Position numbers and translations under genes: made by a program. A stretch of DNA of 64,000 nt from Escherichia coli. GTDB taxonomy: Bacteria > Pseudomonadota > Gammaproteobacteria > Enterobacterales > Enterobacteriaceae. Below are positions 1,589-5,011 of this stretch, in pieces (the first letter of the stretch is position 1; each line of letters starts with the position of its first letter). The notes beneath the pieces are model-generated. The model ran no database searches. It had not been told where the DNA came from and saw nothing but the letters and a program-made list of their open reading frames with translations. The stretch lies in the NCBI RefSeq assembly GCF_003334255.1, contig NZ_QOWU01000013.1. One strand, given 5' to 3'.

Positions 1589-2368
1589 TTAGTAGCTGCT
1601 GGCGCTCTTACCGTCGCCGTGACCCAGCGCTTTCAGCAGGCTTGCCAGCAGGCTGGAAGCGCCAAAGCGGTAGTGACGCGCATCTGCCCAGTCAGCACCG
1701 AACAGTTCATCTGCAATGGCGAGATATTTCTGCGCATCTTCCGCAGTACGCACGCCGCCCGCCGGTTTGAAACCAACGGTTTTTTCTACGCCCATATCAC
1801 GGATCACTTCCATCATGATGCGCGCGCTTTCCGGCGTCGCGTTCACAGCCACTTTACCGGTAGAGGTTTTGATGAAGTCCGCACCCGCTTTGATGGAGAT
1901 TTCAGACGCTTTACGGATCAGCGCTTCGTCTTTCAGTTCGCCGGTTTCGATGATCACTTTCAGCAGTACATTCGCTGCCGCGCAAGCCTCTTTACAGGCT
2001 TTCACCAGGTCAAAACCAACCTGCTCGTTACCCGCCATCAGCGCGCGGTACGGGAACACAACGTCAACTTCATCAGCACCGTAGGCGATTGCCGCACGGG
2101 TTTCTGCCAGCGCGATGTCGATGTCGTCGTTACCGTGTGGGAAGTTGGTTACCGTAGCGATACGGATTTCCGGGGTGCCCTGCTCTTTCAGAGTTTTGCG
2201 AGCAATCGGGATAAAGCGAGGATAGATACAGATAGCGGCGGTATTGCCGACCGGAGTTTTGGCCTGATGACACAGGGCGATCACTTTCTCGTCGGTGTCG
2301 TCGTCATTCAGGGTGGTCAGGTCCATCAATTTCAGTGCACGCAGGCTGCTTGCTTTCAGATCAGTCAT
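1589..2368 (-). CDS. deoC: Deoxyribose-phosphate aldolase
   Basis: ORF track 1589..2392; start trimmed to the internal ATG at 2368 ([20 protein letters not shown]), giving 259 aa; AGGAGAA ribosome-binding site upstream. Confidence 0.95.
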
Positions 2369-2412
2369 TTCATTCTCCTGGCTTGTCGCCAATAAAATTC
2401 ACCTTGCGAGTT

Positions 2413-2428
2413 TGTTAGTATTCTAACA
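2413..2428 (-). promoter_or_regulatory. DeoR operator O2 (overlaps deo P2 promoter)
   Basis: tgttagtattctaaca, a 16-bp palindrome close to the DeoR operator consensus TGTTAGAA-TTCTAACA; 45 bp upstream of the deoC start. Confidence 0.7.
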
Positions 2429-2442
2429 TCTACTCCGCAACA

Positions 2443-2464
2443 CACTTCGATACACATCACAATT
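2443..2464 (-). promoter_or_regulatory. CRP site (CytR/CRP-regulated deo P2 region)
   Basis: Minus strand reads AATTGTGATGTGTATCGAAGTG; TGTGA-N6-TCGAA resembles the CRP consensus TGTGA-N6-TCACA; position fits deo P2. Confidence 0.55.
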
Positions 2465-2625
2465 AAGGAAATCTACTTACAAGTTTGCATCACTGTAATG
2501 CGATCTGGTTCAAATAATTCACTTTCAAATGAATGCGTCAGTGGTGGCAAACGCATCAGGATCAAAGTGAACATCACGAAACTTCTTACAATGGCGCATC
2601 ACCTTCGGCATAAAAGGAAAAGAAG

Positions 2626-4176
2626 ATGCCCACTTCTCATGAAAATGCACTGCAACAACGTTGCCAGCAAATTGTCACCAGCCCAGTGCTTAGCCCGGAG
2701 CAGAAGCGCCATTTTCTGGCACTGGAAGCAGAAAACAATCTGCCTTACCCACAGCTTCCTGCCGAAGCCCGCCGCGCGCTGGATGAAGGTGTAATCTGCG
2801 ATATGTTTGAAGGTCATGCGCCGTACAAACCGCGCTATGTCTTACCCGATTACGCCCGTTTTCTGGCGAACGGTTCCGAATGGCTGGAGCTGGAAGGCGC
2901 GAAAGATCTTGATGACGCACTCTCTCTGCTGACCATTCTTTACCACCACGTACCGTCGGTCACATCGATGCCGGTCTACCTGGGGCAACTGGATGCGTTG
3001 TTGCAACCGTATGTTAGAATTCTAACACAAGACGAGATCGATGTTCGAATAAAACGTTTCTGGCGTTACCTCGACAGAACCCTGCCAGACGCCTTTATGC
3101 ACGCCAATATCGGCCCGTCTGATTCGCCCATTACCCGCGCGATCTTACGTGCAGATGCAGAGTTGAAGCAGGTTTCACCGAACCTGACCTTTATCTACGA
3201 TCCTGAAATCACCCCTGATGACCTGCTGCTGGAAGTGGCGAAGAACATCTGTGAATGTAGCAAACCGCACATCGCCAACGGTCCGGTGCATGATAAAATT
3301 TTCACAAAAGGGGGCTACGGGATTGTGAGCTGTTACAACTCACTGCCGCTGGCGGGTGGTGGCAGCACGCTGGTACGCCTTAACCTGAAAGCCATTGCCG
3401 AGCGCAGCGAATCGCTGGATGACTTCTTTACGCGCACTCTACCGCACTACTGCCAGCAGCAGATCGCCATCATCGATGCGCGGTGTGAATTCCTCTATCA
3501 ACAATCACACTTCTTTGAGAATAGCTTCCTGGTGAAAGAAGGGCTGATTAACCCTGAACGTTTTGTGCCAATGTTTGGCATGTATGGGCTGGCGGAAGCG
3601 GTTAACTTGCTGTGTGAAAAAGAAGGGATTGCCGCGCGCTACGGTAAAGAAGCCGCCGCAAATGAAGTAGGTTATCGCATCAGCGCGCAACTGGCGGAGT
3701 TTGTCGCCAATACCCCCGTGAAATATGGCTGGCAAAAACGCGCCATGTTACACGCACAGTCGGGGATCAGTTCCGATATCGGCACCACGCCGGGCGCGCG
3801 TTTGCCGTATGGCGATGAGCCAGATCCGATCACCCATCTGCAAACTGTCGCCCCGCATCATGCTTATTATTATTCCGGCATCAGCGACATTCTGACGCTC
3901 GACGAAACCATCAAACGTAACCCGCAGGCACTGGTACAGCTTTGCCTCGGTGCCTTTAAAGCCGGAATGCGTGAATTTACCGCCAATGTCAGCGGTAACG
4001 ATCTGGTTCGCGTTACCGGTTATATGGTGCGTTTGTCGGATTTAGAAAAATATCGCGCCGAAGGTTCACGCACCAACACCACCTGGCTGGGCGAAGAAGC
4101 CGCACGCAACACTCGTATTCTGGAACGCCAGCCGCGCGTGATAAGCCATGAACAGCAGATGCGCTTTAGTCAGTAA
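2626..4176 (+). CDS. yjjI: Glycyl-radical enzyme family protein, function unknown
   Basis: 516-aa ORF with a C-terminal glycyl-radical-like motif ([12 protein letters not shown]); AAGGAAAAG ribosome-binding site before the ATG; followed by the activase gene yjjW. Confidence 0.85.
3012..3027 (-). promoter_or_regulatory. DeoR operator O1 (deo P1 promoter), inside the yjjI coding sequence
   Basis: Perfect 16-bp palindrome tgttagaattctaaca exactly 599 bp from O2, the canonical O1-O2 spacing. Confidence 0.7.
3291..3306 (-). promoter_or_regulatory. Candidate DeoR upstream operator OE
   Basis: tgataaaattttcaca, a degenerate operator-like palindrome (about 12/16 match) 279 bp beyond O1, fitting the reported roughly 278-bp OE position. 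Confidence 0.4.
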
Positions 4177-5011
4177 GATTATCCCCTTCTCCTGCGTTGA
4201 CGGGCCAGGCAGTCGTCTGGCTCTGTTTTTGCAGGGCTGCAATCTGCGCTGCAAAAACTGTCACAATCCGTGGACGATGGGACGTTGCAATGACTGTGGG
4301 GAGTGCGTGCCACAGTGTCCGCATCAGGCGTTGCAGATTGTTGACGGCAAAGTGGTGTGGAACGCTGTGGTTTGCGAGCAGTGTGATACCTGCCTGAAGA
4401 GGTGTCCGCAACATGCCACGCCCATGGCGCAATCCATGAGCGTGGACGAAGTGCTTAGCCATGTCCGCAAAGCAGTGCTGTTTATCGAAGGGATAACGGT
4501 GAGTGGCGGTGAAGCCACGACCCAGCTGCCGTTTGTGGTGGCGCTGTTTACTGCTATCAAAAACGATCCGCAACTGCGCCATCTCACCTGTCTGGTGGAC
4601 AGTAACGGCATGTTGAGCGAAACCGGCTGGGAAAAATTGCTCCCGGTGTGCGACGGCGCAATGCTCGATCTCAAAGCGTGGGGGAGCGAATGTCATCAAC
4701 AACTCACCGGACGCGATAATCAGCAGATTAAGCGCAGCATCTATTTGCTGGCAGAGCGCGGCAAGCTGGCGGAACTGCGTTTGCTGGTGATCCCTGGCCA
4801 GGTGGATTATTTGCAACACATCGAAGAACTGGCGGCGTTTATCAAGGGACTCGGCGATGTTCCGGTACGCCTGAACGCGTTTCATGCCCACGGCGTGTAT
4901 GGCGAGGCGCAAAGCTGGGCGAGCGCCACGCCGGAAGACGTTGAGCCGTTGGCTGATGCGTTAAAGGTGCGCGGGGTGAGCCGGTTGATATTTCCGGCGC
5001 TCTATTTGTGA
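4148..5011 (+). CDS. yjjW: Glycyl-radical enzyme activating protein (radical SAM, with extra ferredoxin-like Cys clusters)
   Basis: 287 aa; radical SAM motif CNLRCKNC near the N-terminus plus [12 protein letters not shown] and [12 protein letters not shown] clusters; start overlaps the yjjI 3' end by 29 nt. Confidence 0.85.

Follow-up and report, generated by a model that had tools for sequence, protein, structure and literature searches.

Here we present an analysis of the control region of the deoCABD operon in a 64,000-nucleotide stretch of Escherichia coli DNA (contig NZ_QOWU01000013.1, assembly GCF_003334255.1; hereafter the window). Three palindromes upstream of deoC are almost certainly the authentic DeoR operators of the E. 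coli K-12 deo operon, termed O2, O1 and OE, and two of them, together with the promoter P1, lie inside yjjI, the divergently transcribed neighbour of deoC. Since yjjI begins just 258 bp from the deoC start codon (ATG at 2368), P1, its upstream region, O1 and OE fall in yjjI codons 129–147 and 222–227. The same bases are read twice, once as protein and once for regulation, and selection for the latter has frozen synonymous sites and fixed rare codons; at residue 131 it apparently changed the amino acid too. The region is that of the reference strain: across positions 2300–3400 the sequence shows 100% identity with E. coli K-12 MG1655. Of 5426 complete E. coli genomes, 5424 contain this stretch, and the genes that RefSeq annotates on the matching DNA are deoA, deoC, yjjI ('YjjI family glycine radical enzyme') and yjjW.

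Three DeoR operators upstream of deoC

The DeoR operators O1, O2 and OE and the promoters P1 and P2 of deo were reportedly described by Dandanell, Valentin-Hansen, Hammer and co-workers between 1982 and 1989. The operator type is a 16-bp palindrome (TGTTAGAA/TTCTAACA), which is perfect in O1 and has one mismatch in O2 and four in OE (Table 1). All three lie upstream of deoC. The initial annotation of this DNA had listed three operator-like palindromes here; the strings, read directly from the sequence, are all exact. Its start-to-start spacings of 599 bp between O2 and O1 and 279 bp between O1 and OE were likewise reproduced exactly on recomputation, and they agree with the literature on deo O2, O1 and OE (PMC3334521, PMC8053113).

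At a threshold of three or fewer mismatches to the O1 palindrome, the window holds two sites, O1 and O2, against 0.19 expected, and two sites were reached in 2 of 100 shuffles of the window. O1 and O2 thus exceed chance by sequence alone. Relaxing the threshold to four or fewer mismatches yields exactly three sites, which are the three operators; mononucleotide shuffles average about 2.0.

In published work, a distance of 599 bp separates deoP1 from deoP2, and DeoR locks both promoters via looping (PMC3334521). DeoR is described as binding at the tandem promoters to O1 and O2, which are separated by about 600 bp, with OE upstream by about another 300 bp; DeoR loops between all of these sites were observed by electron microscopy, and O1–O2 looping by endogenous DeoR has been measured in vivo (PMC8053113). 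The operator sequences were looked for in the supplement of the loopometer paper and were not found there. Mapped onto the window, O2 would overlap the −10 element of P2 in the deoC–yjjI intergenic region and O1 that of P1, 599 bp upstream, with OE as an auxiliary operator 279 bp upstream of O1. Multimeric DeoR, as the literature has it, would bind pairs of sites, loop the intervening DNA and block both −10 elements, gaining affinity by looping among the three sites.

yjjI is coding sequence across O1 and OE

Within yjjI, O1 takes in the third base of codon 129 and all of codons 130–134 (Y-V-R-I-L-T), and OE the third base of codon 222 and all of codons 223–227 (H-D-K-I-F-T). The initial annotation had placed both operators, and hence P1, inside the yjjI open reading frame (2626–4176), and had offered a yjjI start further downstream as an alternative. 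In that case the annotated start would be wrong, the gene would begin past the operators, and P1, O1 and OE would be intergenic; the only point that speaks for it is that complete promoters inside a coding sequence (CDS) are generally rare.

Family models and N-terminal homology show that the reading frame is coding from its start. The TIGR04040 model scores 787 bits (cut-off 498) and aligns yjjI residues 11–504 with model positions 1–497 of 497, and Pfam PF11230 covers residues 22–504. In an alignment with 12 homologues (identity down to 65%), about 110 columns are invariant within residues 13–226. Full-length relatives at 35–57% identity, retrieved by searching 1.8 billion representatives without a filter, align from yjjI residues 7–22. 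The AAGGA Shine–Dalgarno sequence ahead of the ATG at 2626 is kept across genera, as is the ATG itself, and the variation flanking the operators is codon-position-specific. The position of O1, OE and P1 inside yjjI is therefore upheld. The downstream start is contradicted by the family-model coverage, by the conservation of residues 1–230 and by the conserved Shine–Dalgarno sequence, and we rejected it as extremely improbable.

The operators are constrained across genera

Scanning one genome per species gave 80 yjjI loci. deoC is the divergent neighbour of yjjI in 76 of them; in two (L010 and L065) the DNA ends before that side and does not reach the neighbour. The ATG-to-ATG distance between deoC and yjjI is 247–273 bp in Enterobacteriaceae and 458–474 bp in Hafnia and Edwardsiella. 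Synonymous constraint was measured as normalised synonymous-codon entropy per 6-codon window (511 windows in yjjI) in a set of 72 loci from Enterobacteriaceae, Hafnia and Edwardsiella, all with the deoC-side neighbour or an unknown flank. A second set comprised one representative per genus (21 sequences), in which 16-nt windows over the 1548-nt CDS were also ranked.

In the codon alignment the O1 and OE strings are nearly invariant, and the third positions of the flanking codons vary freely. Against a gene mean entropy of 0.66, the lowest of the 511 windows in the 72 loci are codons 222–227 and 223–228 (0.026), followed by codons 129–134 (0.036). The 21 genera (gene mean 0.64) give the same two sites in reverse order, with the O1 codons 129–134 ranking first of 511 (0.018) and the OE codons 222–227 second. 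By nucleotide identity in this set, 3291–3306 and 3012–3027, exactly the operator coordinates, rank second and third in conservation among the 16-nt windows of the CDS. In 61 of the 72 loci the OE sequence is exactly TGATAAAATTTTCACA. Within O1 the rare codons AGA131 and CTA133 are fixed. Each is one of only two such codons in yjjI, and both are normally avoided by E. coli; codons 131–142 hold four of the seven AGA, CTA, ATA and CGA codons of the gene. The pattern points to purifying selection on the operators as DNA where the deo operon adjoins yjjI.

The distances between the sites differ in their variability. O1 and OE are fixed at 279 bp because the DNA between them is in-frame coding. The O1–O2 distance varies between 589 and 612 bp across genera (loci L002–L079; Escherichia 598/599, Salmonella 599, Citrobacter 600/601/612, Enterobacter 591/603, Kluyvera 596), so the DeoR loop is apparently not bound to one helical phase.

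Residue 131 is encoded by GGA (Gly) in Hafnia and Edwardsiella, which gives TGTTGGAATTCTAACA at the position of O1. Enterobacteriaceae have an Arg (AGA) or Lys (AAA) codon instead, of which AGA makes the palindrome perfect. From this comparison, the operator appears to have driven a non-synonymous change at residue 131, from Gly to Arg or Lys. O1-like and OE-like sites persist within yjjI in both Hafnia and Edwardsiella. Hafnia also has a weak O2-like site, TGTTACTATTTGAACA; in the Edwardsiella intergenic region no O2-like site was detected within four mismatches. The deoC–yjjI spacer is about 200 bp longer in Hafnia (L074, L075) and Edwardsiella (L078, L079).

Three lineages have yjjI without deoC beside it. 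In Proteus, radA-serB-smp precede yjjI; in Providencia, pagP lies upstream; and in Moellerella, a gene for a NupC-type transporter does. O1 and OE are absent from yjjI in all three, where the homologous positions hold other codons and residues. In Moellerella wisconsensis (L084) the NupC-type nucleoside transporter gene occupies 2647–3921, immediately upstream of yjjI-yjjW on the same strand, and is a second association of yjjI with a nucleoside gene. A general link between yjjIW and nucleoside genes was considered and set aside, being unsupported by Providencia, Proteus and three distant homologues with unrelated neighbours.

In the searched literature we did not find this cross-genus dual constraint stated (the rare codons, the change from Gly to Arg or Lys, and the absence of the sites without a deoC neighbour), and it is new here. 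The deo control layout itself is already known, and any annotated genome shows that it overlaps yjjI.

Promoters P1 and P2

Read on the deo-sense (minus) strand, O1 and O2 both begin with TGTTAGAAT, that is, TGn followed by TAGAAT, an extended −10 element. The P2 −10 (TGnTAGAAT) lies within O2 with its hexamer at 2425–2420, and the P1 −10 lies inside O1 with its hexamer at 3024–3019, both on the minus strand. At the sequence level, O1 overlaps the −10 region of P1, and O2 that of P2. We infer that P2 starts near 2413 and P1 near 3012. With the P2 start (+1) set at 2413, CRP-like sites are centred at −40.5 and −93.5. These are the positions given for the CRP sites of deoP2, and the agreement backs the P2 assignment at 2413.

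Several points weigh against identifying these sequences as the deo control elements. OE agrees with O1 at just 12 of 16 positions and as a sequence match alone is not significant, so that its support comes from position, the literature and cross-genus conservation. A simple sigma-70 −35/−10 scan found neither P1 nor P2, its sole match being weak and on the plus strand (3272–3299). Such a miss is, in our judgement, expected for extended −10 promoters with a poor −35, and the scan is uninformative here; P1 and P2 are without an independent promoter prediction. DeoR binding, looping and P1 activity are taken from the literature, with minus-strand initiation near 3012 coming from older literature via citing papers. 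The SMRT-Cappable-seq and Kim 2012 supplements contain no entry for deoC, yjjI or the coordinates of the locus. Finally, mRNA structure or a DNA-binding factor other than DeoR could in principle account for the synonymous constraint.

This last point amounts to a separate explanation, in which the conservation at 3010–3066 and 3289–3309 would be due to structure in the yjjI mRNA or to another factor, and not to DeoR and P1. It draws on the hairpin that the O1 palindrome could form and on a further constrained block next to O1. Codons 138–147 (3037–3066) have 6-codon windows of 0.18–0.24 and contain the rare codons CGA141 and ATA142. Within this block, 3050–3065 (TAAAACGTTTCTGGCG; about −38 to −53 of deoP1) is the most conserved 16-mer of the yjjI CDS, with a column identity of 0.985 in the 21 genera, and we know of no described operator there. 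Its palindromic core, AAACGTTT at 3052–3059, is one that we take to resemble the centre of LacI-family operators (RbsR, PurR, Cra), and it could instead be the site of an undescribed factor. Against such a cause, the two tightest windows match the 16-bp operators of the literature to the base, and the constrained sites are missing from lineages without a deoC neighbour. A search of 2000–4300 found no Rfam family match, and no compensatory substitutions were seen in the palindrome arms across genera, the arms being invariant. For 3037–3066, a location at about −26 to −55 of P1 suffices as an explanation. We therefore consider mRNA structure or another factor quite improbable as the cause and retain the assignment to DeoR and P1, with 3037–3066 probably forming the −35/UP region of P1.

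The predicted yjjI promoter and possible coupling to DeoR

An alignment of the intergenic region from 22 genera contains an invariant GGATCAAA at 2559–2566 and, 21 bp downstream of it, a −10 element TACAAT (or TACACT) at 2587–2592. GGATCAAA is the right half of an FNR-type site, of which this half alone is invariant and the left half is not conserved. FNR has been reported to activate yjjI and to give a chromatin immunoprecipitation (ChIP) peak 93 bp upstream of the gene's ATG (PMC3688515). An FNR consensus scan of the whole window returned 386 matches and was discarded as too permissive; the cross-genus intergenic alignment was used instead. The predicted yjjI transcript would start near 2599, which places the FNR site at −41.5, a class II geometry.

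This start sets the layout of the region. P2 and the predicted yjjI promoter would be back to back, about 186 bp apart. P1 would be convergent with the predicted FNR-dependent yjjI promoter at a distance of about 413 bp, and the O1–O2 loop would enclose that promoter. On the predicted yjjI transcript, O1 would lie at about +413 and OE at about +692. It follows from the same geometry that P1 transcripts would be antisense to the yjjI promoter, the 5′ untranslated region and the first ~129 codons. CRP-2 would be at about −92.5 from the predicted yjjI start, and CRP/CytR might serve both divergent promoters.

The initial annotation had further suggested that DeoR/CytR control could extend to yjjI-yjjW. 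We regard a coupling of yjjI-yjjW to DeoR as plausible. That the layout also regulates these genes would add to the explanation in terms of deo control and not replace it, and we put it forward only tentatively. DeoR at O1 and OE, or the O1–O2 loop, would hinder yjjI transcription by roadblock or topology. Release of DeoR would let convergent P1 transcription interfere with the yjjI promoter and give rise to antisense RNA, so that yjjI expression would depend on deoxyribose-5-phosphate plus FNR.

The facing promoters and the enclosing loop favour this idea, as does the position of CRP-2, which is compatible with class I activation and could be shared through CRP/CytR. The adjacency and the embedded sites are conserved in Enterobacteriaceae, Hafnia and Edwardsiella, and there are reportedly precedents in PurR, which halts elongation within the purB CDS, and in LacI at lacO2. 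Other evidence speaks against it. Among the papers found to mention yjjI, none links the gene to DeoR or addresses DeoR/CytR coupling, and the role in deo repression fully explains the conservation of the sites. P1 is the weaker of the two deo promoters. yjjI is expressed anaerobically via FNR, a signal that need not overlap with that of DeoR. The distant yjjI-yjjW pairs have unrelated neighbours and therefore argue against a general functional link to nucleoside genes. Whether through a roadblock, the topology of the loop, convergent interference or antisense RNA, a measurable effect on yjjI is conceivable, if somewhat improbable.

A bolder version holds that the overlap is not passive: the expression of YjjI-YjjW would be tied to deoxyribose-5-phosphate or nucleosides together with FNR, and the sites would have shaped YjjI itself (Gly131 to Arg or Lys). 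We think this unlikely on balance. If true, it would be a documented case of a promoter–operator module evolving inside, and constraining, the CDS of a neighbour, and a physiological lead to the function of the orphan glycyl radical enzyme pair YjjI-YjjW.

Comparison with known systems

The elements described here are no different from those of the known deoCABD control region, being the identical system in the same organism with the same 16-bp palindromes and the same 599- and 279-bp spacings. Classical accounts of deo, as far as they could be reached, present the region as upstream DNA with a regulatory role, without mention that residues 1–227 of YjjI are encoded there. As in deo, lacO2 in lacZ and galOI in galE are distal looping operators within a reading frame, where coding and binding information coincide. 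These two lie in the first gene of their own operon, on the sense strand, whereas the deo operators lie in a divergent neighbour that also holds a complete promoter, and the regulated deo transcript is antisense to its host gene yjjI.

Two further systems bear on the possible coupling. In 1992, He and Zalkin reportedly found a PurR operator within the coding region of purB that acts as a transcriptional roadblock. There a repressor bound within the CDS lowers the expression of that gene, and DeoR at O1 and OE could act likewise on yjjI; the purB roadblock is demonstrated, whereas that of DeoR on yjjI is hypothetical. The coliphage 186 promoters pR and pL face each other and give overlapping antisense transcripts, as would P1 and the predicted yjjI promoter at their distance of about 413 bp. 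Interference of the coliphage 186 type is hypothetical at deo/yjjI, where the yjjI start site is predicted.

Repression by DNA looping has a founding example in the deo control region, which is sold as a 'deoP1P2' cassette. Expression vectors use a 945-bp K-12 fragment under the name 'deoP1P2 promoter' (PMC5351984); should this fragment directly adjoin the deoC ATG, its far end would be at 3313, immediately past OE. It is less appreciated that two-thirds of the deoP1P2 region is yjjI CDS, and that the cassette carries about 229 yjjI codons plus the yjjI promoter. The region illustrates how the needs of regulatory DNA can prevail over the choice of codons, and even of amino acids, through a long period of evolution. 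It also calls for caution when yjjI is codon-optimised or deleted, as standard yjjI knock-outs lose P1, O1 and OE. For an uncharacterised glycyl radical enzyme, the layout offers a simple, testable route to the conditions under which it is regulated. Nothing here alters what is understood of DeoR itself, and we see the case as a neat illustration with a practical caveat, not as a discovery.

Further features of the locus

Coordinates of all features are collected in Table 1.

Table 1. Features of the deoC–yjjI–yjjW locus, in window coordinates
Feature	Position	Strand	Basis
DeoR operator O2, TGTTAGTATTCTAACA (TGTTAGAATACTAACA on minus strand)	2413..2428	.	Sequence; conserved TGT[T/G]A.TATT.TAACA across genera
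DeoR operator O1, TGTTAGAATTCTAACA, perfect 16-bp palindrome	3012..3027	.	Sequence; synonymous constraint in yjjI
DeoR operator OE, TGATAAAATTTTCACA, imperfect palindrome	3291..3306	.	Sequence; synonymous constraint in yjjI
CRP-1 of deoP2, TGTGAtgtgtaTCGAA, TGTGA-N6-TCGAA, centre 2453.5	2446..2461	-	Sequence; invariant CTTCGA..CATCACA across genera
CRP-2 of deoP2, TTTGAaccagaTCGCA, TTTGA-N6-TCGCA, centre 2506.5	2499..2514	-	Sequence; partial conservation
Probable upstream part of P1 (about -26 to -55: -35 region and UP-like A/T tract)	3037..3066	-	Synonymous constraint; promoter role inferred
Predicted yjjI promoter: FNR-type site 2552-2565, -10 TACAAT 2587-2592	2552..2592	+	22-genus alignment; FNR ChIP literature
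deoC CDS, first gene of deoCABD, target of P1 and P2	1589..2368	-	Open reading frame; RefSeq; tblastn conservation beside yjjI
yjjI CDS, 516 amino acids, YjjI-family glycyl radical enzyme	2626..4176	+	Open reading frame; RefSeq; TIGR04040, PF11230, alignments
yjjW, YjjW-family activase, same predicted operon, downstream of yjjI	4148..5011	+	TIGR04041, 396 bits; annotation

The yjjW start lies 29 nt upstream of the yjjI stop in a different frame, giving an overlap at 4148–4176. Synonymous constraint is seen at 4144–4173, and the last nine codons of yjjI are constrained by this overlap with the yjjW start. An overlap of 4–29 nt is kept in distant yjjI-yjjW pairs (L082–L088).

A weaker constrained block spans codons 296–301 (3511–3528, TTCTTTGAGAATAGCTTC), with 6-codon windows of 0.24–0.34 against the gene mean of 0.66. 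Its constraint may reflect only two-fold codons with strong bias, and to our knowledge no regulatory element has been described at 3511–3528. On the other side of the locus, the deoC–deoA spacer (1463–1588) contains palindromic units resembling repetitive extragenic palindromes and bacterial interspersed mosaic elements (REP/BIME-like; gccggatgcg...ccttatccggcctac, gtaggcctgataagcgcagcgcatcaggc), which are ordinary for E. coli intergenic DNA.

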